A stretch of 64,000 bases of DNA from Gemmatimonadales bacterium (GCA_035575675.1 DATLXS010000182.1:880-64879), one strand, 5' to 3'. Counted from the first letter of the stretch, positions 5,087-53,013 are shown. Numbers and translations are program-made. The notes: generated from the letters alone by a model not told the origin.

Positions 5087-5854
5087 TTAGGTGAAGTCTG
5101 GAATTGCGGCGCGCGCGAACGTCACGCCCTCGACCCGCGTCGCGCCGGCCTGCTCGAGGGCACGCGCTGCCTCAGCGAGCGTCGCGCCGGTTGTAAAAAC
5201 ATCATCGACCAGGATTAATGCGAAACTCGAAATGTGGAATGCGAAATTGACGCTTCCAGGTCCATTTTGGATTTCGCATTTCGCATTTCGCACTTCAAAC
5301 GCCCCCGCCACGTTCGCCAGACGCGTGTCCGGTGTCAACGCCGTTTGCGTCGGCGTCTCCCGCGTGCGGACGAGCAGGTCGGGAAGCACGGGAATCCGCC
5401 ACTGTCGGGCCAGCGCGCGCGCCAGCATCGCACTCTGGTTGTAGCCGCGCGTGCGCAAGCGCTTTGTGGCGAGAGGAATCGGGATGAGCACCGACGCTCC
5501 GTCGGCCGGGGACTGCCGTTTCCCCATCGCGATTGCCAAGTCGTCGGCGATCCGCGGCAGGCCGCCGTACTTCAGGGCGTGGACGGCGGGCCGGGCGTAC
5601 GCATCGAGCCACACCGCGGATCGCACCGCTCTGAGCGCCTCCGGCCACGCAACGCACAGCCGGCAGGGGCCGAAGTGGGGCTCGGGCTGGCCACACCGCT
5701 CGCACCAGGGTGGCCGCACCGCGCGCCAGCGCTGCCGGCACAGCGGGCAGACGATCCTGGCGGCATCGCGGGCATTGAGCAGACCGTGACAAATGAGACA
5801 CTCTGCAGGAAGGAGAAGCTGTTCAACCGCGGAGCGCACGGACGACGGCAGCAC
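5087..5854 (-). CDS. ComF-family phosphoribosyltransferase-like protein carrying an in-frame repeat insertion
   Basis: 255 aa. N-terminal double zinc ribbon (CLICHG..CPLCRQ..CERCGQ..CRLC) and a C-terminal PRPP loop LILVDDVFTTGATL. The AT-rich repeat at 5217-5293 is read in frame as NAKCEIQNGPGSVNFAFHISSFA. Confidence 0.8.
   Translation of the reverse strand: MLPSSVRSAVEQLLLPAECLICHGLLNARDAARIVCPLCRQRWRAVRPPWCERCGQPEPHFGPCRLCVAWPEALRAVRSAVWLDAYARPAVHALKYGGLPRIADDLAIAMGKRQSPADGASVLIPIPLATKRLRTRGYNQSAMLARALARQWRIPVLPDLLVRTRETPTQTALTPDTRLANVAGAFEVRNAKCEIQNGPGSVNFAFHISSFALILVDDVFTTGATLAEAARALEQAGATRVEGVTFARAAIPDFT
5217..5293. repeat. Inverted pair of GCGAAAT-type heptamer arrays inside comF
   Basis: Left arm AATGCGAAACTCGAAATGTGGAATGCGAAAT (5217-5247), a 23-nt spacer, and right arm ATTTCGCATTTCGCATTTCGCAC (5271-5293). 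The arms are reverse complements at the unit level. The region is visibly AT-richer than its surroundings. Confidence 0.85.
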
Positions 5855-11214: not shown

Positions 11215-11986
11215 CCCAGGTTGGTCTCTTCCAGTTGGGGTTCCGGAGCAGCGCCGCCGGGTGATACGTGACGATCACAGGGGTGCCGCGGAACCGGTGA
11301 ACCTGATTGCGTAATGAGCCGAGGGACTGCTTGGTGTTGAGCACGCTCTGCGCCGCCGTCCCGCCCATGGCGAGAATGACCTTCGGCTTCACGAGCTCGA
11401 TCTGGCGGTGGAGGTAAGGGAGGCACGCCGCGATTTCGTCGTATTGCGGCAACCGGTTTTCCGGCGGCCGGCACTTCACGACATTGCAGATGAAGACCTG
11501 ATCGCGCGGCAGCTTGATCGCCTCGAGGATCTTCGTGAGCAGCTCGCCCGCCCGGCCGACGAAGGGACGGCCGGTCTCGTCTTCGGTCTTGCCCGGCCCC
11601 TCGCCGATCACCACCAGGCGCGCGGTGGCCGGACCTTCGCCCGGGACGGTGTTCGTGCGGCGTTCGCACAGCTTGCACTTGCGGCATTCCGCGATGAGCG
11701 CCGCGACGGCCGCGAGCGACTGGGTCTGCTGGATCGGATCGGCGGCGAACAGGTCGCTCGACGGCGGATCGAACCTCAGGCCCGCAGGTGGAAGATCGGC
11801 GGCAATGTGGGTTTTCCCCGGGCTTGCGCCGGGGGTGAGAACTGCGGGAGCGGCTGTGGCTGTTTGGTCGTCTAACCCCGGACGCAAGTCGGGGGTTGGC
11901 GAGATGGTCGGGAGAATCACGGAATCTCCCCCCAAGAGCCGCTGCTGTTTTAAGTATTCCGCTGCCAGAGCCCGGCTGTCGGTCAA
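11177..11986 (-). CDS. Uracil-DNA glycosylase, family 4
   Basis: 269 aa. CRKCKLC..VPGEGP..VIGEGPGKTEDETGRPFVGRAGELL and the HPAALLRNP C-terminal motif. Confidence 0.85.
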   Translation of the reverse strand: MTDSRALAAEYLKQQRLLGGDSVILPTISPTPDLRPGLDDQTATAAPAVLTPGASPGKTHIAADLPPAGLRFDPPSSDLFAADPIQQTQSLAAVAALIAECRKCKLCERRTNTVPGEGPATARLVVIGEGPGKTEDETGRPFVGRAGELLTKILEAIKLPRDQVFICNVVKCRPPENRLPQYDEIAACLPYLHRQIELVKPKVILAMGGTAAQSVLNTKQSLGSLRNQVHRFRGTPVIVTYHPAALLRNPNWKRPTWDDVRIAARLLER

Positions 11987-24223: not shown

Positions 24224-24255
24224 CCACGCGATTACTCGAAGGGGGCTGGATAAAC

Positions 24256-24290
24256 GTAGGGGCGCAGCATGCTGCGCCCCTACATTTTTT
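24256..24290 (+). terminator. Rho-independent terminator between convergent genes
   Basis: Perfect palindrome GTAGGGGCGCAGC/ATGC-centred/GCTGCGCCCCTAC (24256-24283) followed by ATTTTTT (24284-24290). Confidence 0.75.
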
Positions 24291-33395: not shown

Positions 33396-34261
33396 GCCGT
33401 ATCACCGACGTCCACATCCATATCCAGCCGTGGCGCGACCTCAAGCCCAAAGTCCAGGAGGCGATGCGCAAGGGGAAAGAGGACCATTGGGAGGTCCTCA
33501 TCTCCCTGATGGACGATCCCCGCGCGCTGCTCGAGATGATGGACAAATCGGGCGTCTGGCGCGTCGGCCTCGTCAATTATCCGAGCCCCGACATCATGGG
33601 GTTCGACGATTCGACCAACACATTCGCCGCCACCTACGCCCGCGCGAATCCCGAGCGGCTGTTGCCCTATGGCGGCGTGCACGCGCGTTTCACGCGCGAT
33701 CCTGCGGGCGACGTCGATCGCTTGATCGATATGGGCATCCGGTTGCTCAAAATCCATCCGCCGCACCAGGCCTTCCCCGCCAACGCCTACACCGACGGCC
33801 TCGCGGCGCTTGGCCAGATCTACCGGCGCTGTGAAGAACGCGGCCTGCCGGTGATGATCCACACCGGCACATCGATCTTCCCGGGCGCGCGCTCGAAATT
33901 CGGCAATCCCATGGAGCTGGACGATGTCGCCATCGATTTTCCGGATCTGCAACTCGTGATGGCCCATGGCGGGCGGCCGCTCTACATGGAGGAAGCGTTT
34001 TTCATCCTGAGACGTCATAGGAAAGTCAGGCTCGATGTCTCAGGCATTCCGCCCTCCAAGCTGCTGGAGTACTTTCCTCGCCTGACGGAGATCTCGGACC
34101 GCGTGCTGTGGGGCACCGACTGGCCCAGCCCCGGTGTGAAAGACCTCCGGCAAAACATCGATCAGTTCCTGGCCCTGCCGCTTACGAACGAGCGGCAACA
34201 GGCTATCCTCGAAACCAACGCGCTGGCGCTTTTCCCTATGGAGTCTCGAACCCATGCATAA
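33392..34261 (+). CDS. Amidohydrolase-2 (TIM-barrel metal-dependent hydrolase) family protein
   Basis: 289 aa. ITDVHIHIQPW (HxH), ..IHPPHQ.., MIHTG and WGTDWP motifs. TTG start overlapping the upstream stop. Confidence 0.75.
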   Translation: MSRITDVHIHIQPWRDLKPKVQEAMRKGKEDHWEVLISLMDDPRALLEMMDKSGVWRVGLVNYPSPDIMGFDDSTNTFAATYARANPERLLPYGGVHARFTRDPAGDVDRLIDMGIRLLKIHPPHQAFPANAYTDGLAALGQIYRRCEERGLPVMIHTGTSIFPGARSKFGNPMELDDVAIDFPDLQLVMAHGGRPLYMEEAFFILRRHRKVRLDVSGIPPSKLLEYFPRLTEISDRVLWGTDWPSPGVKDLRQNIDQFLALPLTNERQQAILETNALALFPMESRTHA

Positions 34262-35627
34262 ACTGTTCGTGCTGCTGGTGGTGCTTCCTGGAACGCTGAT
34301 CGCGCAGGCCGCGCCGGCCACTGCTCCCGCCGGACGAATCGCGTTCGAGCAGTTCACGCTGCCCAGTGGCCTGCGCGTCATCTATTCCGAAGACCACTCG
34401 ACGCCGATCGTCACGGTGGATGTGTGGTACGAGGTCGGCTCGCGCAACGAGCGCCCCGGCCGCTCGGGGTTCGCGCACCTGTTCGAGCACATGATGTTCC
34501 AGGGGTCGGCGCACATCAAAAAGGCCGAGCACAACAAGTTGATCGAGCGCGCCGGCGGCGAGTTCAACGGCTCGACCGCCGAGGACCGCACGAACTATTG
34601 GGAGACGGTGCCGTCGAACCGTCTCAACCTGGCGCTCTGGGCGGAAGCAGACCGGATGCGCTCGCTTGCGATCACCCAGGAGAACTTCGAGAACCAGCGG
34701 CAGGCGGTCAAAGAGGAACGCCGGCTGCGCGTCGACAATCAACCTTATCAGGGTGCGTTCACGGACGGTCTCACGTTGCCGTTCGACAGCACCAGCTGCT
34801 TCCCCTACGCCCACACCGTCATCGGCTCAATGGCCGATCTCGACGCGGCGAAACTTCCGGATGTCCAGGCGTTCTTCGACAGCTACTACGCGCCCAACAA
34901 CGCGACCCTCGTCGTGGTGGGCGATTTCGCGCCGAGCGAGCTGCGCCGCCTCGTGAATCAGTACTTCGCGGGGGCGCCGAGTCACCCGGTGCCGGAAGCG
35001 CCGCGGTGCGATGCGACGGCGACCGGCACCGTTCCCCGGCGCCGCGAGGTGCATGACGCGCAGGCAAATCTGGACGCGGTGCTCCGCATCTACCGCGTTC
35101 CGGACCATCGCCACGCCGACACGCCCGCGCTCGAGATCCTCAACATCATCCTCGGCCAGGGCGAGAGCTCGCGGCTCAACGTCTCGGTCGTGCGGCGGGA
35201 AAAGGCCGCGGTCGGGTCGGGCGCCATTCTCAACCCGTTCGGCTCGCGCAACGGGCCCGGGATCTGGGTCGCGTACGGTATCGTGAACTCGGGAGTGCCG
35301 GCGGACCGGCTGGACAGCCTGATTGGGGTGCAACTGGACAGCATTCGTGCCAACGGCATTACGCCGGACGAGCTCGACAAGGCGAAGAACGCGCTACGCG
35401 CCGGCTTCATTACCAACCGGGAGACCACGTTGGGCAAAGCGGAGGAGCTGCATCACTACCTGACGTTTCATACGTCGATCGAAGAGATCAACACCGATCT
35501 CGACCGGCTGCTCGCGGTGACGAGCGACGATGTGAAGCGGGTCGCGAACACCTACCTGGCGCCCGGCAATCTGACGCTGGTGGTCGTTCGTGCGGGTGCG
35601 GCGCCGGCGAGCGGAGGTGCCCAATGA
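34254..35627 (+). CDS. M16 (pitrilysin-family) zinc peptidase, active subunit
   Basis: 457 aa. Signal peptide MHKLFVLLVVLPGTLIAQA and an intact HLFEHMMFQGS (HxxEH) zinc motif. Confidence 0.9.
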   Translation: MHKLFVLLVVLPGTLIAQAAPATAPAGRIAFEQFTLPSGLRVIYSEDHSTPIVTVDVWYEVGSRNERPGRSGFAHLFEHMMFQGSAHIKKAEHNKLIERAGGEFNGSTAEDRTNYWETVPSNRLNLALWAEADRMRSLAITQENFENQRQAVKEERRLRVDNQPYQGAFTDGLTLPFDSTSCFPYAHTVIGSMADLDAAKLPDVQAFFDSYYAPNNATLVVVGDFAPSELRRLVNQYFAGAPSHPVPEAPRCDATATGTVPRRREVHDAQANLDAVLRIYRVPDHRHADTPALEILNIILGQGESSRLNVSVVRREKAAVGSGAILNPFGSRNGPGIWVAYGIVNSGVPADRLDSLIGVQLDSIRANGITPDELDKAKNALRAGFITNRETTLGKAEELHHYLTFHTSIEEINTDLDRLLAVTSDDVKRVANTYLAPGNLTLVVVRAGAAPASGGAQ

Positions 35628-37738
35628 ACCGGCGGAATGTGGGAATGATGGAACGATGGACTGGACTACTGCTTCTCCTTTCCATCATTCCATCATTCAT
35701 TCCATCATTCCATCTTTCCGCCCAGGAGCCCTTCCCCACCAAGGCACCGGCTCCCAGTCGCCTCCGGCCCGTGCAGTTCCCGCCGTTCCGGGATGTCGCA
35801 CTGCCGAACGGGATGACCCTGCTGCTGGTCGAGAATCACGAGCAGCCGACCCTCTCGGTGAGTCTCAGCTTCCGCGCGGGAACCGCGTACGATCCCGCCG
35901 GCAAAGAAGGGGTCGCGGCGCTGGTCGCGGAGCTGTTGACCAAGGGCACCCCCACGCGCACCGCCGACCAGATCGAGGCCGCGATCGAGGGTGTGGGCGG
36001 GAGCATCGGCGCGAGCACGGGCGACGACTTCCTGACGATCTCGACCGACGTGCTGAGCGATCACGCGGATCTGGCGTTCTCGCTGCTCGGCGATGTGACG
36101 CGACGGGCGACGTACCCCGAGCAGGAGCTGGAGCTCGCGCGCACGCGGTTCCTTTCGTCGCTCGAGGTGGAGCTGTCGCAGGCCGATAATGTCGCCGCGC
36201 GCGCGTTCCAGAAGGAGATTTACGGCCGCAATCCGTACGGCCGAACCACGAGCGTTGCCGCCTACAAGGCGATCACTCGGGACGACGTCGTGGGGTTCGC
36301 GGCGCGGCGGCTGCGTCCCGGTGGCGCGCTCCTCGTGATCTCAGGCGATATCACCCTGCCGCAAGCCCGCGCGTTCGCGACCGAGGCGTTCGGCACCTGG
36401 CGCGGCGCCGCGGCGCCGACGCCCGCATTTCCCGCGGTCCCCACCAAACGCGGCACGGACATCCTGCTCGTCAACCGGCCGGGCTCCGTGCAGTCGAATA
36501 TCGTGATCGGCAATACGACCTTCCTCCCGACCGACAGCGGCTACTACCCGGCGCGGATCGCGACGCACGTCTTGGGCGGTGGCAGTGATTCCCGCCTGTT
36601 CATGATCCTGCGCGAGCAGAAGAGCTGGACGTACGGCTCCTACGCCGCGCTGCGGCGCAGTCGCGGCATGGGATTCTGGCAAGCGACATTCGAGGGCCGC
36701 ACCGAGGTCACCGACAGCGCGCTGACGGAGCTGCTCCATCAGATCGACCGGATACGCACCGAGACCATTTCCGACAGTGAGCTCGTTGCGGCGAAGGGGT
36801 TCCTCGTCGGCTCCTTCCCGCTGACGATCGAGACGCCGCGCCAAATCGCGCAGGTCGTCACGTCGGCGCGGCTGCTCGGGCTCGGCGCGGACTACATCCA
36901 GCGCTATCGCGAACGCCTCACGGCGGTGAGTGCCCTGCGCGCGCGCGCCGCGGCGCAGCGCGTCTTCAAACGCGATGCGCTCACGATCGTGGTGGTCGGC
37001 GACGCCAAGGCGCTATACGACAAGCTCAAGGCGATCGCGCCCGTGCGACTCGTGGATGTCGGCGGCAAGTCGATGGATCCGGCCGACCTGAATCCGACGG
37101 GCGGGCCGGTGGCGTTCGATCGCAGTCAGATCGTGGCGCACAGCGACAGCTTCCAGGCACTGGTGCAAGGCAACGCACTGGGGGGTCAGACCTCGAAGGT
37201 TGTCGTCACCGGTGATTCGATCGTCTATACCGAATCGACCGTGATTGGTGCGTTCGTCCAGCAACAGTCGACGGCCGTGCTGAACAGCGACCTGTCGATG
37301 CGTCGGACCGATCAGACCAGCGTGGTTCAGGGCCAGCACACGGAGATCCATCTCGTTTACGCGGGCGGGCGAGTGAAGGGCACGAGCCAGACGCCGCAGC
37401 CCGGCGGTCCGAAGACGATCTCGGTCGACACGACGGTTACCGCGGGGACGATCGACGACAACGCGCTCGCGGTCCTGTTGCCCGCGCTGGCGCTCGAGCA
37501 AGGCAAAACCTTCAACCTGAACGTCTTCTCGTCCGGCGAAGGCGTGACCAAGGTCGTCAGCGTGAAGGTCGCCGGCGTCGAGAACGTCGCGGTGCCCGCG
37601 GGGACCATCCCGGCCTACCGGCTCGAGTTGTCCGGGATGCAGCTGCCGCTCGTGATGCATGTCAGCCAGCAGGCGCCGCGGCGGGTCGTGCGGGTTGCGC
37701 CGACGGGAGCGCCGCTGGTGTTTGAACTCGTGAAATAA
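35624..37738 (+). CDS. M16-family peptidase, non-catalytic partner with ~250-aa C-terminal extension
   Basis: 704 aa. M16 fold with no HxxEH motif. ATGA overlap with the upstream M16 gene. The first ~33 codons are encoded by the inverted repeat at 35631-35722. Confidence 0.8.
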   Translation: MNRRNVGMMERWTGLLLLLSIIPSFIPSFHLSAQEPFPTKAPAPSRLRPVQFPPFRDVALPNGMTLLLVENHEQPTLSVSLSFRAGTAYDPAGKEGVAALVAELLTKGTPTRTADQIEAAIEGVGGSIGASTGDDFLTISTDVLSDHADLAFSLLGDVTRRATYPEQELELARTRFLSSLEVELSQADNVAARAFQKEIYGRNPYGRTTSVAAYKAITRDDVVGFAARRLRPGGALLVISGDITLPQARAFATEAFGTWRGAAAPTPAFPAVPTKRGTDILLVNRPGSVQSNIVIGNTTFLPTDSGYYPARIATHVLGGGSDSRLFMILREQKSWTYGSYAALRRSRGMGFWQATFEGRTEVTDSALTELLHQIDRIRTETISDSELVAAKGFLVGSFPLTIETPRQIAQVVTSARLLGLGADYIQRYRERLTAVSALRARAAAQRVFKRDALTIVVVGDAKALYDKLKAIAPVRLVDVGGKSMDPADLNPTGGPVAFDRSQIVAHSDSFQALVQGNALGGQTSKVVVTGDSIVYTESTVIGAFVQQQSTAVLNSDLSMRRTDQTSVVQGQHTEIHLVYAGGRVKGTSQTPQPGGPKTISVDTTVTAGTIDDNALAVLLPALALEQGKTFNLNVFSSGEGVTKVVSVKVAGVENVAVPAGTIPAYRLELSGMQLPLVMHVSQQAPRRVVRVAPTGAPLVFELVK
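35631..35722. repeat. Inverted pair of GGAATGA-type arrays with GGCGGAA/TTCCGCC termini
   Basis: Left arm GGCGGAATGTGGGAATGATGGAACGATGGA (35631-35660), a 20-nt spacer, and right arm TCCATCATTCCATCATTCATTCCATCATTCCATCTTTCCGCC (35681-35722). Confidence 0.85.
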
Positions 37739-39158: not shown

Positions 39159-40363
39159 TCGCCTTCCTGCTTGCCCAGACGATCGCGATCACCGGGGGCA
39201 CGGTGTATCCGGTTTCGGGTCCGAAGATCGAAAACGCCACGGTGCTGATCCGTGATGGCCGGATTGCCGCCGTCGGAGCGACCGTGGCCGTGCCGGCAGG
39301 TGCGACGCGCATCGATGCATCCGGCAAGTGGGTAACACCCGGCTTCATCGATGGCGCGGGTCAGATGGGATTGCGGGAGATTGGCGCGGTCGACAATACG
39401 AGTGAGTACACCTTCCGGGGCAACGACGTCGCGGCTGCCTTCAACGTGCTCGAAGGCGTCAATCCGGCGTCCGCGCTCATCGCCGTGAACCGGATGGAAG
39501 GGATCACCACCACCCTCGCGGTGCCCAACGGCAATCTGATTTGGGGCCAGGCGGTGTTGATCGATCTCGATGGCGCGACGATCGAGGCGATGCGGGTGAA
39601 ATCACCCACCGCGATGGTCGCCGATTTGAGCGAAGGGTCCAAGGCCGCGGGCGGCGGCTCCCGCGCGGGCGTGGCGCAACGGCTGCGCCGCGTACTCGAT
39701 GACGCGCGCGAATACGCGACGCGGCGTGCCGATTATCGCCGCGCGCAGATCCAGCCGCTCAGCGCGAGCGCGGCGGACCTCGAGGCGCTGCAGCCGGTGC
39801 TGCGTGGTGAGCTGCCGCTGCTCGTGGTTGCGAACCGCCGCAGCGATATCGAGACCGCGCTGCGCATCGCCAAGGAGTACAAGCTGCGGCTGATTCTCGC
39901 GGGGGTCGCCGAGGGGTGGATGATCGCGAGCGAGATCGCGGCGGTGGGGGTGCCGGTGCTGGTCGAGCCGCTCGACAACATTCCGAGCTACGACGCGCTC
40001 GGCATCCGCTACGAGAACGCGCCGTTGCTCGCGAAGGGCGGCGTGAAGGTCGCGCTGATGGAGACGGCGACCGAGAATACCAGAGACCTGCGGCAGCAGG
40101 CAGGCAACGCCGTTGCGAACGGGATGCCGTGGGAGCAGGCGTTGCGGGCCGTGACGCTCACACCCGCCGAGATCTTTGGCGTGGCGGATCGGTACGGATC
40201 ACTGGACGCGGGGAAAGTTGCGAACGTCGTCGTCTGGACCGGTGATCCCTTCGATTTCTCGACGGGGGTCGAGCACGTATTCATACGGGGCAAAGACATT
40301 CGGTTGCGGAGCAGACAGACGGAGTTGCTGGAGAGGTATAAGACGCTGCCGCCGAAGTACTAG
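39155..40363 (+). CDS. Amidohydrolase-family paralog lacking the HxH metal motif
   Basis: 402 aa. Same fold (TPGFIDGAGQMG where HxH is expected; ..GKVANVVVWTGDP). ATGA overlap with the upstream paralog. No signal peptide from the only available start. Confidence 0.7.
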   Translation: MIAFLLAQTIAITGGTVYPVSGPKIENATVLIRDGRIAAVGATVAVPAGATRIDASGKWVTPGFIDGAGQMGLREIGAVDNTSEYTFRGNDVAAAFNVLEGVNPASALIAVNRMEGITTTLAVPNGNLIWGQAVLIDLDGATIEAMRVKSPTAMVADLSEGSKAAGGGSRAGVAQRLRRVLDDAREYATRRADYRRAQIQPLSASAADLEALQPVLRGELPLLVVANRRSDIETALRIAKEYKLRLILAGVAEGWMIASEIAAVGVPVLVEPLDNIPSYDALGIRYENAPLLAKGGVKVALMETATENTRDLRQQAGNAVANGMPWEQALRAVTLTPAEIFGVADRYGSLDAGKVANVVVWTGDPFDFSTGVEHVFIRGKDIRLRSRQTELLERYKTLPPKY

Positions 40364-40776
40364 GCGGTAACAGGCGGGATTGGGCGGTAACGGGCGGTAG
40401 GTGGCGAACCCACCTGCCGCTTGTTTTTGTCGATTGCGGCATACAATCGCCACACCAACGTCCCTGCATGATTCCGCAGGCGTTCAATCGTTTGCCACGC
40501 CTCGTCTGACATCAACTCCAGGTCCTTGGCGAGTCTCAACGCGACAGATAACTCAGACAATGAACCGAGAGCGATGTCGAGGTAACGCCTGAACTCGGCG
40601 GATCCCCGTTTCGCCGATCCTTCTGCGATGTTGGCGACGACAGAGAAAGCCGCACGTCGGGACTGCGAAGTTAGTCCGTAGAGCTCATGCTTTGGGAAAG
40701 TCGCGGTAATCCGATAAACATCCAGAGTCAGTTCGTAAGAAAGCTTCCATGCTTGAAAGCGCTCATAGGGGAGCAT
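40360..40776 (-). CDS. Four-helix-bundle protein (23S rRNA intervening-sequence protein / Avd-like family)
   Basis: 138 aa. FQAWKLSYELTLDVY..FPKHELYGLTSQSRRAAFSVVANIAEGSAKRGSAEFRRYLDIALGSLSEL matches the TIGR02436/PF05635 pattern. The C-terminal tail (..GSPPTARYRPIPPVTA) is read from array A. Visibly lower G+C than its neighbours. Confidence 0.85.
   Translation of the reverse strand: MLPYERFQAWKLSYELTLDVYRITATFPKHELYGLTSQSRRAAFSVVANIAEGSAKRGSAEFRRYLDIALGSLSELSVALRLAKDLELMSDEAWQTIERLRNHAGTLVWRLYAAIDKNKRQVGSPPTARYRPIPPVTA
40363..40429 (+). repeat. GGCGGTAnnn 10-bp iteron array ending in a terminator hairpin (array A)
   Basis: GGCGGTAACA GGCGGGATTG GGCGGTAACG GGCGGTAGGT starts on the last base of the TAG stop. 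The last unit forms stem GCGGTAGGTGG-CGAAC-CCACCTGCCGC followed by TTGTTTTTG. Confidence 0.9.
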
Positions 40777-40844
40777 CAGTGGATCGTAGCGTTCAGTCTG
40801 ACAAGCGGGTTACTCAATCGAACGCATGTGGGCACAAGAAAATT

Positions 40845-40878
40845 CCGCCTGTTGCCGCCTTTTGCCGCCCATTACCGT
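40845..40878 (-). repeat. 10-bp iteron array B (C-rich on + strand)
   Basis: CCGCCTGTTG CCGCCTTTTG CCGCCCATTA CCGTC. On the minus strand it reads TGA-GACGGTAATG GGCGGCAAAA GGCGGCAACA GGCGG, starting directly after the stop of the 40880-41680 gene. Confidence 0.85.
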
Positions 40879-40879
40879 C

Positions 40880-41680
40880 TCAGCGTCTCGACCAGACGAG
40901 TATCGCTCCGCAAGGACTCAAATAACCTGAGTACTGGACGGGTACACCCTCGGGTCCGGGATATACTTCCAGCGCTTCGATATTGAATGGGTTGACGAGG
41001 TCATCGAGGCTGAGTCCACCGCTAGCCGTGCCGCCGGGCTGCAGCAAGACACCGTCGAAAACGACGCTGGGGTTACATTTTCCGCGAAAGAACATCGTGT
41101 TCGCGGCTCGCATGGTGACTGTACATTGCAAGCCGGGACCGCCTTGTGAAGGGCCCCGCTGCTGTCCCCCGCAAGTGACGCGCACTCCAGACATCCCATG
41201 AAGTAGGTCAGTAAGGTGGAGGGGATCCCGCTTGTCGATTTCGTCGCGGGTGAGGAAATGTCCAAACCCCTCCTGTCTGCGTCTGTAAAACCCGGCGTCC
41301 GCCAAGTATGGCAACCGTCTCTCGATTTCCTTCGCTACGACCGTAACGGTGTCGAGAGTTATCGGGTTCGAAGGCAAGCTCAGCGATACGCGTGCCGTGA
41401 AGGCTGAACTGAAAAGAAAGGGTTTGCTTAGACTGATCGGATAACCGATCCTACTGATTAGCAGGCGATACTCACCGAGGCGCGGAATGCTGAAGGTGAA
41501 CTGACCGTCCGAGCTTGTGACTAGAGACTTCATCGCCGTGCCCGCGCTATCGAGGAGAAGGATGCGTGCACCGACGATGGGTTTTCCGGACACACTGTCC
41601 AGCACCGTCCCGGCGAGGACCTGTGCTTCAGCGGGATGCGCGAGCAATCCGAGTGTCAGCACGCAAACGGAGAGTCGCAT
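40880..41680 (-). CDS. CarboxypepD_reg-like + TonB-plug-like domain protein (no barrel)
   Basis: 266 aa. Signal peptide MRLSVCVLTLGLLAHPAEAQ, LAGTVLDSVSGKPIVGARILLLD..SDGQFTF..GEYRLLISRIGY, then plug-like LTDLLHGMSGVRV..VVFDGVLL..NIEALEVYPGP. Lower G+C than its surroundings. Confidence 0.6.
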   Translation of the reverse strand: MRLSVCVLTLGLLAHPAEAQVLAGTVLDSVSGKPIVGARILLLDSAGTAMKSLVTSSDGQFTFSIPRLGEYRLLISRIGYPISLSKPFLFSSAFTARVSLSLPSNPITLDTVTVVAKEIERRLPYLADAGFYRRRQEGFGHFLTRDEIDKRDPLHLTDLLHGMSGVRVTCGGQQRGPSQGGPGLQCTVTMRAANTMFFRGKCNPSVVFDGVLLQPGGTASGGLSLDDLVNPFNIEALEVYPGPEGVPVQYSGYLSPCGAILVWSRR

Positions 41681-45431: not shown

Positions 45432-45443
45432 GCAGGAAAATAC

Positions 45444-45487
45444 GACGGTAAGGGACGGTAAAGAAGCGACGGTAAAGGACGGTAAGG
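45444..45487. repeat. GACGGTAAnG iteron array, single arm
   Basis: GACGGTAAGG GACGGTAAAGAAGC GACGGTAAAG GACGGTAAGG fills the recQ-stop to acyl-CoA-dehydrogenase-start spacer. C-rich in the sense of both flanking genes. Confidence 0.85.
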
Positions 45488-45488
45488 G

Positions 45489-46616
45489 TCACACCTCGCC
45501 GAAGTGTTGGAGAATGATCGCGCGGTGGTTCCGGCGCGCCTCGACGTACCGCCGCATCGCGGGCGCAATGTTGCCCCACGCGAGATCCTCCCTTCGCCAC
45601 AACACCAGACATTCGGCTGCCCTGCCGTCCCTGCCGCCCCTGCCGGCCTCTTGGTAGTAGGCCTCCAACGTGGGCGGGGGACCCCAATGCAGCACCTGCC
45701 GAACGTCCGGCTTGTCGATGCCCATGCCGAACGCGCTCGTCGCGACGATCACACGCACCTGATCGGTGAGGAACGCCCGTAATACACGCCGGCGCATGCC
45801 GGGACTGAGACCGGCGTGATAGGGGGCCGCGCGCACACTCGACCGCAGGAGCGCGCGCGCGACGAGCTCGGTCAGGCGGCGGGTTGGCGTGTAAATGAGC
45901 GACGCTCCTGCCCCGGTGCGGACGCGCTGGCGGATCGCCGCGAAGCGCTCGCGATCATCTCGCACGCGACAGACACGCAAGTCGAGATTGGGACGATCGA
46001 ACGACGTCACCACGACCTCGGCATCTGGCATGCGCAGTACGTGCAGGATGTCGGTGCGAGCGGCCGGAGTCGCGCTTCCCGTCAGGGCAATCGTCGGGGG
46101 CCGTCCGAGCGCCGCGCGGAACACGCCGAGGCGCCGGTAGACCGGCCGGAATTCGTTGCCCCATTCGGCGATGCAGTGCGCCTCGTCGATCGCGAGCAGC
46201 GACACCCGCGTGCCGGCTGCTACGAGGCGTCGCGTCAGCGATGCCAATCGCTCCGGCGCGCAGTACAGCAGCGCGAGCCGCCCCGCGGTCGCCGCGTCCA
46301 GGATGGTGCGCCGCTGGGTGGCATCGAGCTGGCTGTTCACGTAGGCGGCCGCGATGCCCCGGCGTCGCAGCGCGCCGACTTGATCCTGCATCAGCGAGAT
46401 CAAGGGCGACACGACGAGCGTCAGGCCGGCGTCGAGCAGCGCGGGGACCTGGTAGCAGAGCGACTTCCCCGCCCCAGTGGGGAGTACGGCGAGGACGTTC
46501 CGGCCGGCGAGCAGCGGGCCCAGCACTCTGAGCTGATGGACGCGGAAGCGGGCGTGACCGAACCGTTCCTTGAGGATTGTGCGCGCGGCCTCGAGTCCCA
46601 CGGTGCAGGTCGGCAT
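45489..46616 (-). CDS. RecQ-family helicase core, lacking Zn-binding/WH/HRDC domains
   Basis: 375 aa. Motifs LAVLPTGAGKS, DEAHC, TATA-like LTGSATP and YYQEAGRGGRDG. Ends ..AIILQHFGEV* exactly where RecQ proteins begin the Cys4 zinc cluster. Confidence 0.8.
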   Translation of the reverse strand: MPTCTVGLEAARTILKERFGHARFRVHQLRVLGPLLAGRNVLAVLPTGAGKSLCYQVPALLDAGLTLVVSPLISLMQDQVGALRRRGIAAAYVNSQLDATQRRTILDAATAGRLALLYCAPERLASLTRRLVAAGTRVSLLAIDEAHCIAEWGNEFRPVYRRLGVFRAALGRPPTIALTGSATPAARTDILHVLRMPDAEVVVTSFDRPNLDLRVCRVRDDRERFAAIRQRVRTGAGASLIYTPTRRLTELVARALLRSSVRAAPYHAGLSPGMRRRVLRAFLTDQVRVIVATSAFGMGIDKPDVRQVLHWGPPPTLEAYYQEAGRGGRDGRAAECLVLWRREDLAWGNIAPAMRRYVEARRNHRAIILQHFGEV

Positions 46617-48837: not shown

Positions 48838-49581
48838 ATGCCCAAGGTGCACTGTTCGCTGTGTAACGCTCCCGTGGAGGGCCGCACGCTCGCGTCCCCG
48901 CAGAAGTTGGAAAACCGCATCATCGACCTGATAAAAAAAGACCGGCCGGAATGGGAAGGGACGCGTGGCATCTGCGCCAACTGCCTCGAGACCTATCGCG
49001 CCAAGAAGTTCGTGACCTATCTCGAAGCCGAGTATCAGAAGCTGTCGGAGCTCGAGCACTCAGTGGTCTCGAAGATCACGCGCCGCGGGCGGGTCAGTAA
49101 GCTCGTGCATCAGGACATGGAGACGTCGATGACGTTCGGCGAGCACGTGGCCGACAAGGTGGCGCAGTTTGGGGGAAGCTGGCGCTTCATCGGGCTCTTT
49201 GGAGGCATCCTGCTCGTGTGGATGGTGGTGAACGCCTGGGTGCTCGCGACCCATCCCTTCGACCCCTACCCCTTCATTCTCTTGAACCTCGTGCTGTCGA
49301 CGCTCGCGGCGCTCCAGGCGCCGGTGATCATGATGAGCCAGAACCGCCAGGCGCACAAAGACCGGATGCAGGCGAATCAGGATTACGAGATCAACTTGAT
49401 GGCGGAGATTGAAATCCGGGATCTACACGACAAGCTGGATTCGCTGCGATTCAAGCAATGGCACGAGCTGTGGCACATTCAAAAGCGGCAAATCGAACTG
49501 CTCGAGCATCTCTGCGCGAAGGGTGCGGATCCCGAGCTTAAGGCTCCCGCGCCGAGTCCCTATGTGCCCCCTGAACTCTGA
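48838..49581 (+). CDS. DUF1003-family membrane protein with N-terminal zinc ribbon
   Basis: 247 aa. AGGAGA RBS at 48825-48830. CSLC..CANC ribbon, then FGGSWRFIGLF..PYPFILLNLVLS..APVIMMSQNRQ..D (DUF1003 core). Confidence 0.75.
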   Translation: MPKVHCSLCNAPVEGRTLASPQKLENRIIDLIKKDRPEWEGTRGICANCLETYRAKKFVTYLEAEYQKLSELEHSVVSKITRRGRVSKLVHQDMETSMTFGEHVADKVAQFGGSWRFIGLFGGILLVWMVVNAWVLATHPFDPYPFILLNLVLSTLAALQAPVIMMSQNRQAHKDRMQANQDYEINLMAEIEIRDLHDKLDSLRFKQWHELWHIQKRQIELLEHLCAKGADPELKAPAPSPYVPPEL

Positions 49582-49652
49582 CGGTAGGCAAGGCGACGGT
49601 AGATGAAACGACGGTAGGTAAGGCGACGGTAGATAAAACGACGGTAGATACC
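49579..49652 (+). repeat. GACGGTAG 15-bp iteron array (left arm)
   Basis: T-GACGGTAGGCAAGGC GACGGTAGATGAAAC GACGGTAGGTAAGGC GACGGTAGATAAAAC GACGGTAGATACC. It begins inside the TGA stop of the DUF1003 gene and shows an alternating 30-bp higher-order repeat. Confidence 0.9.
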
Positions 49653-49692
49653 ATTTTGAGTTGTGGTTGATCGCCTCCCGAGATACTCCCTC

Positions 49693-50061
49693 ATGCTCGC
49701 GCATGAGAGAATCCACGCTTGGAAGTTGTGTCACGAGCTGGTGCTGGCTGTATACGATGCAACGACATCGTTTCCTAAACATGAACTCTACGGGTTGACC
49801 TCCCAAGCTCGGCGCGCCGCTTTTTCTGCGGCGGTCAACATTGTCGAAGGCTCCGCCAAGCGTGGCCCCGCCGAATTTCGACGATTCCCGGATATGAGTG
49901 TTGGTTCGCTTGCGGAGCTCGCCTACACGTTGCGTGTGGCGAAGGACCTGGGGTTCATTGATGACGAGCGCTGGCGGTCATTAGAACAACGTCGAAGACA
50001 AGCAGGCATGATGACGTGGAGACTCTACTCGGCGGTTGCGAGAGCGGCGAGAAGAGTGTGA
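49693..50061 (+). CDS. Four-helix-bundle protein (23S rRNA intervening-sequence protein / Avd-like family), paralog 2
   Basis: 122 aa from ATG 49693 (MLAHERIHAWKLCHELVLAVY..FPKHELYGLTSQARRAAFSAAVNIVEGSAKRGPAEFRRF). Aligns end to end with the 40360-40776 protein at roughly 60% identity by eye. Confidence 0.85.
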   Translation: MLAHERIHAWKLCHELVLAVYDATTSFPKHELYGLTSQARRAAFSAAVNIVEGSAKRGPAEFRRFPDMSVGSLAELAYTLRVAKDLGFIDDERWRSLEQRRRQAGMMTWRLYSAVARAARRV

Positions 50062-50063
50062 CA

Positions 50064-50132
50064 CTTACCGTCGCCTTATCTACCGTCCTTTACCGTCGTA
50101 TTATCTACCGTCGTATTATCTACGGTCGTCTC
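50064..50132 (-). repeat. CTACCGTC iteron array (right arm, inverted)
   Basis: CTTACCGTC GCCTTATCTACCGTC CTTTACCGTC GTATTATCTACCGTC GTATTATCTACGGTC. The array ends 1 nt before the TCA (minus-strand TGA stop, 50133-50135) of the 50133-50450 gene. Confidence 0.9.
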
Positions 50133-50450
50133 TCACCCCGCATCTTTCCAGTCAATCGCATAGCTGCGCCCACATTCGTGGCACTTGGCGTCCTTGCGAT
50201 TCTCGGGGACGACGGTCCGCGCGTGACATCCGGGGCACACCAGGTGTGGCTGGCGCACCACACTCCAGGCGCTGGGTCGCTCGCTCCGAATCTCGAGATC
50301 CGCTTTTGGGATCCGGATCTCCACGTGGTGCACATCCAGCACCACGAAGTCCTTGGGCGGATTTTCGACGACGCGATACCAGGCGCCGCGCCGGAGTCCC
50401 TGTCCTTCCGCACGATCACCGCGACTACGAGCCCAACCGATGTCAGCCAT
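50133..50450 (-). CDS. Hypothetical protein with C-terminal zinc ribbon
   Basis: 105 aa from MADIGW (ATG 50450, 8-nt overlap with the upstream GroES-like gene). C-terminal CPGC..(13)..CHEC. Confidence 0.45.
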   Translation of the reverse strand: MADIGWARSRGDRAEGQGLRRGAWYRVVENPPKDFVVLDVHHVEIRIPKADLEIRSERPSAWSVVRQPHLVCPGCHARTVVPENRKDAKCHECGRSYAIDWKDAG

Positions 50451-52914: not shown

Positions 52915-52918
52915 AAAC

Positions 52919-53013
52919 GACGGTAAGGGACGGTAGGTGAAACGACGGTAAGGGACGGTAAACCCTTACCGTCGTTTACCGTCGTAGTACCTACCGTCGC
53001 ATTACCTACCGTC
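52919..53013. repeat. Back-to-back inverted GACGGTA arrays with no cargo ('empty' hairpin)
   Basis: GACGGTAAGG GACGGTAGGTGAAAC GACGGTAAGG GACGGTAAAC | CCTTACCGTC GTTTACCGTC GTAGTACCTACCGTC GCATTACCTACCGTC. It sits between convergent genes, and the TAG stop of the methyltransferase (53006-53008) lies inside the array. Confidence 0.9.

Follow-up and report, generated by a model that had tools for sequence, protein, structure and literature searches.

A 92-bp inverted repeat of tandem GGAATNNT octamers (positions 35631-35722) was analyzed in a 64,000-nucleotide stretch of DNA from a Gemmatimonadales soil bacterium (GCA_035575675.1, DATLXS010000182.1:880-64879; this whole stretch is referred to as the window), where it falls within the first 34 codons of a gene for an M16 peptidase family protein. 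The element is probably a copy of a dispersed, non-autonomous family of hairpins, which replaced most of the ancestral signal-peptide segment of the gene, is translated and has been co-opted as an export signal.

The hairpin element and the M16 locus

The window contains two adjoining M16 genes. The upstream gene encodes a protein of 457 aa with the HxxEH motif HLFEH and a plain predicted signal peptide of its own (MHKLFVLLVVLPGTLIAQA); its TGA stop codon (35625-35627) lies 3 nt ahead of the hairpin. The ATG (35624-35626) of the downstream open reading frame (ORF; 35624..37738, 704 aa) overlaps this stop. The 704-aa protein combines Peptidase_M16, M16_C and a C-terminal DUF3108 domain, and AELL replaces the zinc motif (HxxEH is missing). 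On the basis of these motifs and of general knowledge of the M16B family, the two proteins look like an active/inactive subunit pair. The features of the locus are as follows.

34254..35627, plus strand: upstream M16 peptidase gene (ORF reading and domain match)
35613..35617, plus strand: Shine-Dalgarno (SD) sequence GGAGG, 6 nt 5' of the ATG, kept at all orthologous loci with or without hairpin
35624..35627, plus strand: ATGA stop/start overlap, a translational-coupling junction; (A/G)TGA in all allele classes
35624..35725, plus strand: predicted signal-peptide coding segment, 34 codons, 92 nt of them repeat element (ORF and orthologue comparison)
35631..35665, plus strand: 5' G-rich arm of tandem octamer-type units GGCGGAAT GTGGGAAT GATGGAAC GATGGACT GGA
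35666..35675, plus strand: hairpin loop, coding for part of the Leu-rich hydrophobic core (LLLLL)
35676..35722, plus strand: 3' C-rich arm of TTCCATCA-type units, translated as LSIIPSFIPSFHLSA
35726..37738, plus strand: mature part of the second M16 subunit, 98% identical to that of L008, a Gemmatimonadales metagenome-assembled genome (MAG)
35612..35773, plus strand: approximate short recombination tract with the hairpin allele (mismatch binning)

The outer arms of the element (35631-35656 and 35697-35722, 26 nt each) are 85% complementary and the nested arms (35643-35665 and 35676-35698) 87%; the termini are GGCGGAA and TTCCGCC. An earlier note on this DNA had described the inverted repeat with these termini, beginning 7 nt after the ATG of an ATGA overlap at 35624-35627, and direct reading gave the same termini and positions. 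In the C-rich arm, direct repeats of TTCCATCA-type units (family D1) are spaced 8/12/8, and a duplicated unit block yields the IPSF/IPSF repeat in the peptide; the SFIPSF repetition, which the note had taken as a mirror of the DNA repeat, arises in this way. As three octamers make up eight codons, (TTCCATCA)n reads SIIPSFHH in any frame; (GGACGGTT)n reads GRLDGWTV.

The repeat stands out statistically. The 15-mer TTCCATCATTCCATC has five matches in the window, all within the element (0.05 expected), and the GC content of the element is 0.47 against a background of ~0.69. RNA folding of 35600-35740 gave -57.9 kcal/mol (z = -4.49), a stability reached by none of 200 dinucleotide shuffles, and a 107-nt core gave z-scores of -4.5 (plus strand) and -5.9 (minus strand). 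A GC-corrected fold scan over the 64 kb ranked the element among the four strongest hairpins of the window. A covariance-model search against Rfam 15 returned no family at its gathering score (the best hit, mir-H1 at 28.9 versus 97 bits, was a generic hairpin match), and a consensus scan at the hairpin site found no promoter, no terminator and no terminator-like U tract.

The N-terminus of the 704-aa protein, read in frame from the ATG, is MNRRNVGMMERWTGLLLLLSIIPSFIPSFHLSAQ followed by E, identical to the translation quoted in the note, and has the layout of a signal peptide. The 5' arm reads R-R-N-V-G-M-M-E-R-W-T-G, a long basic n-region; the n-region (MNRRNVGMMERW), which follows the initiator Met directly, has a net charge of +2, and the average over hairpin alleles is +1.8 to +2.3 versus +1.7 in alleles with a plain signal peptide (class A, see below). 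The h-region (TGLLLLLSIIPSF) has a best 8-residue Kyte-Doolittle window of 3.40 and an uncharged run of 23 residues. A basic n-region from the G-rich arm and a hydrophobic core from the spacer and C-rich arm, as proposed in the note, thus fit the charge and hydropathy values. The 3' arm ends in CTTTCCGCC(CAG), which reads L-S-A-(Q) and is common to copies on other genes; L-S-A|Q or S-A-Q|E is conserved at the C-terminal end across all M16 alleles and the other cargo genes described below. A c-region recognized by signal peptidase I (SPase I) has, by the -3/-1 rule, small or neutral residues at these positions, and the conserved ending would be a candidate for one. Taken together, the 34-aa segment would work as a Sec signal. 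The RR in MNRRNV and MKAVRR prompted an inspection by eye for a Tat signal, which was rejected: the twin arginine is not conserved across alleles.

Alleles at the same site in related species

A protein search yielded 120 close orthologues from Gemmatimonadales MAGs (80-95% identity), and the DNA was compared for ~40 species-level orthologous loci (numbered with the prefix L). All 120 N-termini converge on ...AQ|EPFP and fall into four classes.

Class A: 18-22 aa, plain; for example MKAVRALAALLLVGGTLAGQ
Class B: 14 aa; for example MNALLLVCTLLAVQ
Class C: 29-34 aa; MNRRNVGMME.W... or MKPWNVGRLDGWKVG...LSNIPTFQLSAQ
Class D: 29-36 aa; MKAVRRLGGLAV...TAQPPNRLTAQ

GGAGG followed by (A/G)TGA over the upstream stop is kept at every one of the ~40 loci, and at the hairpin-free loci this coupled (A/G)TGA is the only possible start. 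In classes A and B the segment has a GC content of 0.67-0.79 and folds with a z-score of ~0, whereas classes C and D form near-perfect hairpins with a GC content of 0.45-0.68 and z-scores of -4.7 to -10 (e.g., -66 and -79 kcal/mol). Two families of hairpin units, the GGAATGAT/GGACGGTT type and the GGCGGTTAG type, occupy this one slot; their sequences intergrade from GGAATGAT via GGACGGTT to GGCGGTTAG, each time with the matching complement in the 3' arm. At four loci (L025, L027, L034 and L022) the signal peptide is hairpin-derived and still in frame, and the structure has decayed (z ~0), so that the hairpin structure itself appears dispensable. Because the deepest lineages are all class-A-like, class B resembles class A minus an 18-nt n-region, and class D is similar to class A at both its 5' and its 3' end, we infer that a plain signal peptide is ancestral at the M16 slot. 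The comparison of orthologous N-termini had been proposed in the note as a check on its claim; the plain signal peptides lie in the same slot, with a start that is not downstream of the element, and represent empty sites rather than a case against the claim. The recurrence of hairpin alleles in many independent assemblies makes it unlikely that they are assembly artefacts. At one locus (L041 7099-7175, MAG AG42), 25 nt are deleted, so that the 3' arm lacks its end, the SAQ|E junction is gone and the mature frame is shifted; this allele is either a pseudogene or an assembly error at the hairpin.

The alleles turn over much faster than the genes that carry them. Clades of mixed class received 96-100% bootstrap support in trees built from the upstream gene, from the mature part of the downstream gene and from both concatenated: L015 (class C) with L006 (D); L018 (D) with L023 (A); L024 (B) with L017/L021 (D); and L009 (A), L004 (B), L008 (C) and the window (C). 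The identity of the signal-peptide segment is decoupled from that of the flanks in both directions:

Window and L008: segment 0.68, flanks 0.93-0.97
L015 and L006: segment 0.64, flanks 0.88-0.94
L019 and L044: segment 0.96, flanks 0.81
L011 and L038: segment 0.93, flanks 0.81-0.83

Between the window and L008, mismatches number 0-4 per 50-nt bin, except in the 50 nt that directly follow the signal peptide, where there are 11; in this same bin the window differs from the distant L039 at 3 positions, against 5-14 in all other bins. As the peak of mismatches to L008 coincides with the match to L039, it marks a short imported tract of ~160 bp (~35612-35773), which brought the hairpin allele of the window.

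Copies on unrelated genes and the origin of the element

Metagenomes were scanned with the pattern GGAATGATGGAA-N15-45-TTCCATCATTCC, which specifies 24 bases. More than 120 stretches matched, with fewer than one expected by chance according to our own estimate, and 80 of them were fetched as loci; the M16 site accounts for only 4 of these 80. The copies lie in contigs of 36-72% GC and have extra GGAATNNT units in their flanks. Of the 46 copies in high-GC contigs, 20 (strict automatic test) or ~27 (inspection) lie at the 5' end of an ORF as a predicted signal peptide, with a common reading in the same frame, ...W(N/K)VGMME...LLSIIPSF(H/Q)LSAQ| (or ...WNVGMME...LLSIIPSFHLSAQ|), followed by a mature protein. 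None of the 34 mid- or low-GC copies reads as a signal peptide; the remaining copies are intergenic hairpins near stop codons. The cargo, unrelated proteins that are typical of the envelope or likely to belong to it, includes an M19 dipeptidase, an M42/M28 aminopeptidase, LolA, a SPOR+TPR protein, proteins resembling outer-membrane-protein (OMP) β-barrels and proteins without a Pfam match. In total, at least nine unrelated gene families (M16 included), all exported or likely exported, have a hairpin-encoded predicted signal peptide.

The allele series of M16 returns in two further genes, in clusters of at least 90% identity (one of these has a protein named Gemmatimonadetes): a plain short signal peptide (MIIALLVCLIAQ), a GGAATGAT hairpin, and others including the class-D type ending in PPNRLTAQ (GGCGGTTAG-type). 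The hairpins in these genes are evident at the DNA level (L173, -75 kcal/mol, z = -6.9; also L174 and L103). In a gene downstream of EngB, the start and h-core of the short allele correspond in the alignment to the hairpin loop, and a GGAATGATGG unit makes a new ATGA overlap and rewrites the last codons of the upstream gene. A search with blastn-short for the M16 hairpin sequences in the window and 826 kb of related loci found no copy beyond the orthologous site, so that mobility cannot be demonstrated locally. A profile of the 30-aa signal peptide run against 5.8 billion proteins, a search without statistical power, returned only tiny spurious ORFs, and in an exact look-up of six cargo proteins four were absent from the collection, probably since gene callers had chosen other starts. 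No IVP gene (see below) was found near the 80 fetched GGAATNNT copies.

Hairpins of GGAATNNT units also occur in contigs of 36-50% GC (e.g., L084, L124, L064 and L100), presumably from other phyla, and are always non-coding there. Some contigs have several copies; L100 has two within 1.1 kb. A single GGAATGATGGAA hairpin from the viral collection (L175 4559-4599, an IMG/VR contig with a GC content of 0.65) lies just 5' of an SD-like GGAGG and an ATG. Carriage by phages was considered and dropped, as this one copy among the viral contigs gives no sign of it.

The position of the copies relative to stop codons offers the simplest unifying reading, namely that the elements are stop-codon-proximal hairpins. 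A long upstream ORF stops just before the 5' arm, mostly by 3-6 nt, in 24 of 25 copies of the signal-peptide type, and among the non-coding copies an ORF with 100 codons or more ends within 12 nt of an arm end in 11 of 19 high-GC and 9 of 34 low-GC cases. The element probably belongs to a family whose arms consist of tandem ~8-nt units, GGAATNNT on one side and its complement on the other, and whose copies typically lie right after stop codons. As the non-catalytic M16 subunit starts in the 4-nt ATGA overlap, a hairpin at this stop would fall within its first 34 codons. At a stop codon that coincides with the start of the next gene, a hairpin would persist only if compatible with the first ~30 codons, and a cleavable signal peptide permits this: its sequence requirements are loose and it is removed after export, which would make it a permissive coding site and leave the mature enzyme unchanged. 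Translation from the conserved coupled start would turn the G-rich arm into the n-region, the loop and C-rich arm into the hydrophobic core, and the terminal CTTTCCGCCCAG into the L-S-A-Q cleavage region. Slippage or duplication of units and short-tract recombination between species would account for the fast turnover of alleles. The proposal in the note that a repeat had been exapted as an export signal gains support from the conserved start, the plain alleles in the same slot, the open frame and the recurrence on at least eight other gene families.

Several observations weigh against this reading, some of them by favouring one of the rivals discussed below. Whole-arm inverted repeats are present in the element, but inspection of the flanks of the fetched copies by eye revealed no target-site duplication (TSD) and no conserved termini beyond the units, related insertion sequences (IS) or REP-associated tyrosine transposases (RAYT) not having been searched; with such hallmarks of transposition not seen, the term 'dispersed family' refers to recurrence of sequence. 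The random positions used as a control, of which 4-8% are stop-proximal, included coding positions, and the enrichment over them is in part just hairpins filling short spacers. Some alleles have a weak hydrophobic core (L015, best window 1.43), and the segment is a Sec signal by prediction from manually read features.

One rival holds that the hairpin is a selected regulatory RNA at the cistron junction (for strict coupling, as an RNase III or 3'-end site, or to slow early elongation) and that its coding role is secondary. The stability of the folds across species is very high (see the z-scores of classes C and D), the structure begins 7 nt past the AUG and thus within the ribosome footprint, the stop/start junction is the site of 24 of the 25 signal-peptide-type copies, and the tandem-heptamer stems of the Coxiella intervening sequence (IVS) type are RNase III substrates (PMC4990558). 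RNAalifold reported four stem pairs with compensatory double changes, which could mean selection on structure, and so could the hairpin identity (0.93-0.96) above that of the flanks in the distant pairs L019/L044 and L011/L038. However, there was no net covariation bonus, as the register of the pairing differs from allele to allele; sister species whose flanks are 88-97% identical have no hairpin or a different one, and decayed hairpins persist as in-frame signal peptides. Occlusion of the SD or AUG is not apparent either: the base-pair probabilities of the SD, AUG and +4..+15 region are alike in hairpin and hairpin-free alleles (0.77-0.89 versus 0.83-0.88 for the SD). The same elements are also found between convergent genes, downstream of terminal genes and within a ComF loop (see below), and neither an Rfam family nor a terminator-like U tract was detected. 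We consider a regulatory RNA unlikely. Phase variation, in which slippage of 8-nt units would switch an exported protein ON/OFF as CTCTT repeats do in Neisseria opa (a documented precedent, PMC3960869), would fit with a unit length not divisible by 3, repeats where the signal peptides of several proteins, exported or outer-membrane-like, are encoded, allele length polymorphism and the one frameshifted allele, L041. Yet all 35 scored M16 loci, as well as L013 and L050, are in frame, and the one out-of-frame allele in ~39 genomes results from a 25-nt deletion and not from slippage of a unit; moreover, the units are imperfect, few identical ones follow each other, and the same elements also occur as non-coding DNA. 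With practically all alleles in frame, phase variation was rejected as barely credible. Since occlusion and phase variation found no support, conserved RNA structure gave no net covariation signal, and hairpin-free and decayed alleles are common in sister lineages, we see the element as tolerated or co-opted, essentially a selfish or 3'-end hairpin and less likely a purpose-built regulator.

How much of the element is translated depends on the start codon. If the true start lay inside or after the hairpin, as in the alternative that the note had offered, the 5' arm would be an untranslated leader or the upstream 3' end, and the loop and 3' arm, or nothing, would be translated. Many GGAATG-type alleles do have in-frame ATGs in the 5' arm or near the loop (codons 8-9 in the window; L011, L038, L015 and L008), and in these part of the element could be an untranslated leader; the same would follow for the EngB-downstream gene from the alignment of its loop (ATGATCGTGCTT) with the ancestral start of the short allele (GTGATCCTCGCG), and gene callers chose an internal Met in the orthologues P0002, P0013 and P0082. 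On the other hand, no SD precedes the internal ATGs, GGAGG-N6-(A/G)TGA is the sole start of hairpin-free alleles and is kept in all hairpin alleles, the basic residues right after the ATGA start are conserved, and GGCGGTTAG-type alleles are without a usable internal start. Frame 0 is open throughout the element in 22 of 22 distinct hairpin alleles, though pure GGAATGAT arrays would hold a TGA in every frame; this stop avoidance discriminates weakly, as frame +2 is also open in 17 of the 22. A start beyond 35722 would leave the protein with no signal peptide, which its partner and all orthologues have. The loop and 3' arm must be translated in every case, because the sole hydrophobic core is located there. 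That the 5' arm, too, is translated from the ATGA is argued for by the conservation of this overlap and of the SD, by the basic residues next to the ATG, by the open frame and, in class D, by the absence of another start. What remains of the alternative is an untranslated 5' arm in GGAATG-type alleles; for the GGCGGTTAG type, and for the loop and 3' arm throughout, it fails, and we regard an internal or downstream start as very unlikely overall.

Beyond a co-opted hairpin, we tentatively put forward a wider and rather doubtful proposal: tandem-unit hairpins might serve as portable signal-peptide cassettes in Gemmatimonadota, with a few families moving or converting between the 5' ends of exported genes and between species, and maintained because they link the upstream 3' end to downstream initiation and export. 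The link might run via the stop-proximal hairpin and mRNA end formation or processing, and might be tied to the IVP/Avd-like genes in the loops of sister elements. If true, this would be a new way to create, replace and regulate export signals, and a possible route from cytoplasmic to exported proteins.

Known repeat systems and related hairpins in the window

The nearest parallel is with the Rickettsia palindromic elements (RPEs), dispersed palindromic repeats found in frame within protein genes (PMC10969869). Like these, the element is a dispersed palindrome in ORFs that is translated with the host protein at permissive positions. It is set apart from the RPEs described there by its build of tandem octamers, its Gemmatimonadales host and a cleaved N-terminal export signal as its dominant coding use. 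RPEs are ~150 bp long with a conserved peptide, and supply of signal peptides by RPEs is not reported in the literature examined; unlike RPEs, the alleles here alternate with hairpin-free ones among close relatives. The element works like an RPE but is not filed as one. [quoted passage not shown] In contrast to REPs and BIMEs, the arms are made of tandem 7-12-nt units rather than one conserved palindrome, the unit sequence varies by site, many copies are intragenic and translated, and by eye the fetched flanks showed no GTAG-type head and no terminal inverted repeat (TIR) or TSD.

The IVS in the Coxiella 23S rRNA, which carries an S23p gene homologous to the IVP genes, has strain-variable tandem heptamers (GACAGAT) in its stem region (PMC4990558), and a long stem of inverted tandem-unit repeats is likewise found here: in the window and its relatives, IVP genes lie between such arms (GGCGGTAGG, GACGGTAGAT), and the GGCGGTTAG-type M16 alleles share the unit flavour of these arms. 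The M16 element differs from an IVS in that it lies in an mRNA coding region and not in helix 25/45 of the 23S rRNA and has no IVP gene in its loop; excision by RNase III would destroy the coding region. In Neisseria opa, CTCTT repeats code for the hydrophobic part of the leader peptide of envelope proteins (PMC3960869), a resemblance in that short tandem DNA repeats encode the hydrophobic part of a signal peptide. However, the opa repeats are perfect direct pentamers with ON/OFF frameshifting, whereas the M16 repeat is an imperfect inverted-repeat hairpin and out-of-frame alleles are essentially absent. By their defining features, the element appears to belong to none of these groups (RPE, REP/MITE, IVS or opa). 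The literature searched held no description of the repeat, of hairpin-encoded signal peptides, of Gemmatimonadetes repeats or of IVP-flanking repeats of this sort. Co-option of in-frame palindromic repeats as such is already known from RPEs; what appears new, within the literature searched, is that a dispersed hairpin recurs as signal peptide on many exported proteins unrelated to one another.

Signal peptides are usually held to evolve by point mutation within the gene. Here, a dispersed hairpin repeat supplies the whole predicted export signal on the unrelated gene families described above, and its alleles are swapped among close species; it would thus be a natural case of selfish or structural DNA co-opted as a removable protein module. 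The very unusual signal peptides, with a long n-region and a SIIPSF core, form a natural set for probing the limits of Sec recognition. Caution is indicated for gene callers and signal-peptide predictors in Gemmatimonadota: because of the hairpin elements, start codons of the M16 orthologues are annotated inconsistently, and ten public calls (P0002, P0013, P0019, P0073, P0082, P0090, P0095, P0100, P0105 and P0119) start at differing internal Met or Val residues within the hairpin. The window, moreover, unites in one genome solo hairpins, in-frame hairpins and cassettes with 23S-IVS-protein genes, which may help to explain the cassettes.

These were found in a GC-corrected hairpin survey of the window and 622 kb of relatives, in which almost all of the strongest hairpins were tandem-unit inverted repeats. 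The unit sequences are specific for site and species (GGCGGTAGG, GACGGTAAG, GGGATGCG, GGGAGCA, CGGGAAA and others), and syntenic sites in different species hold hairpins of unrelated sequence. Examples in the window are:

5217..5296, minus strand: GCGAAAT-unit hairpin, z = -4.5, in frame within the gene for a phosphoribosyltransferase (PRTase) of the ComF family (5087..5854, minus strand)
49580..50135, plus strand: ~70-nt inverted arms of GACGGTAG-type tandem units around a gene for a 23S_rRNA_IVP / TIGR02436 four-helix-bundle protein (49693-50058)
52917..53013, no strand assigned: solo GACGGTAAGG-unit hairpin between convergent ORFs, directly after a TAA, -65 kcal/mol, z ~-9

The ComF hairpin, the closest analogue of an RPE, sits just before the LVDDVFTTG motif and adds ~12 aa to a loop; in orthologues, the linker is 14 aa without a hairpin and 20, 21, 26 or 31 aa as different translated hairpins. 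This copy is an RPE-like hypervariable in-frame insertion. A second 23S_rRNA_IVP / TIGR02436 (Avd-like) gene (40411-40776, region 40300-40900) likewise lies between ~70-nt inverted arms, and tandem units of the G[GA]CGG[TC]A type make up the arms of both cassettes. L038, L016, L008, L011, L039, L028 and L022 have the 40411-40776 cassette, and it is absent at the syntenic site in L001, L003 and L006, a distribution that suggests a mobile or losable cassette.

Copies related to the GACGGTAAGG hairpin occur in L038 (~19944) and L021 (~21860), and a one-armed tandem array of GACGGTAAGG units lies between two minus-strand ORFs of the window (45442-45489). The fourth-strongest GC-corrected fold of the window (11841-11950, -57.5 kcal/mol, GC content 0.63, z = -3.7) has CCCCGG...CCGGGG motifs in paired form and does not belong to the tandem-unit type. 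Finally, a perfect palindrome, GTAGGGGCGCAGCA|TGCTGCGCCCCTAC, with GTAG...CTAC ends like those of classical REPs, is found at 24252-24287 in the window, at ~14765-14795 in L006 and at ~18600-18630 in L027, and may represent a separate, conventional REP family.

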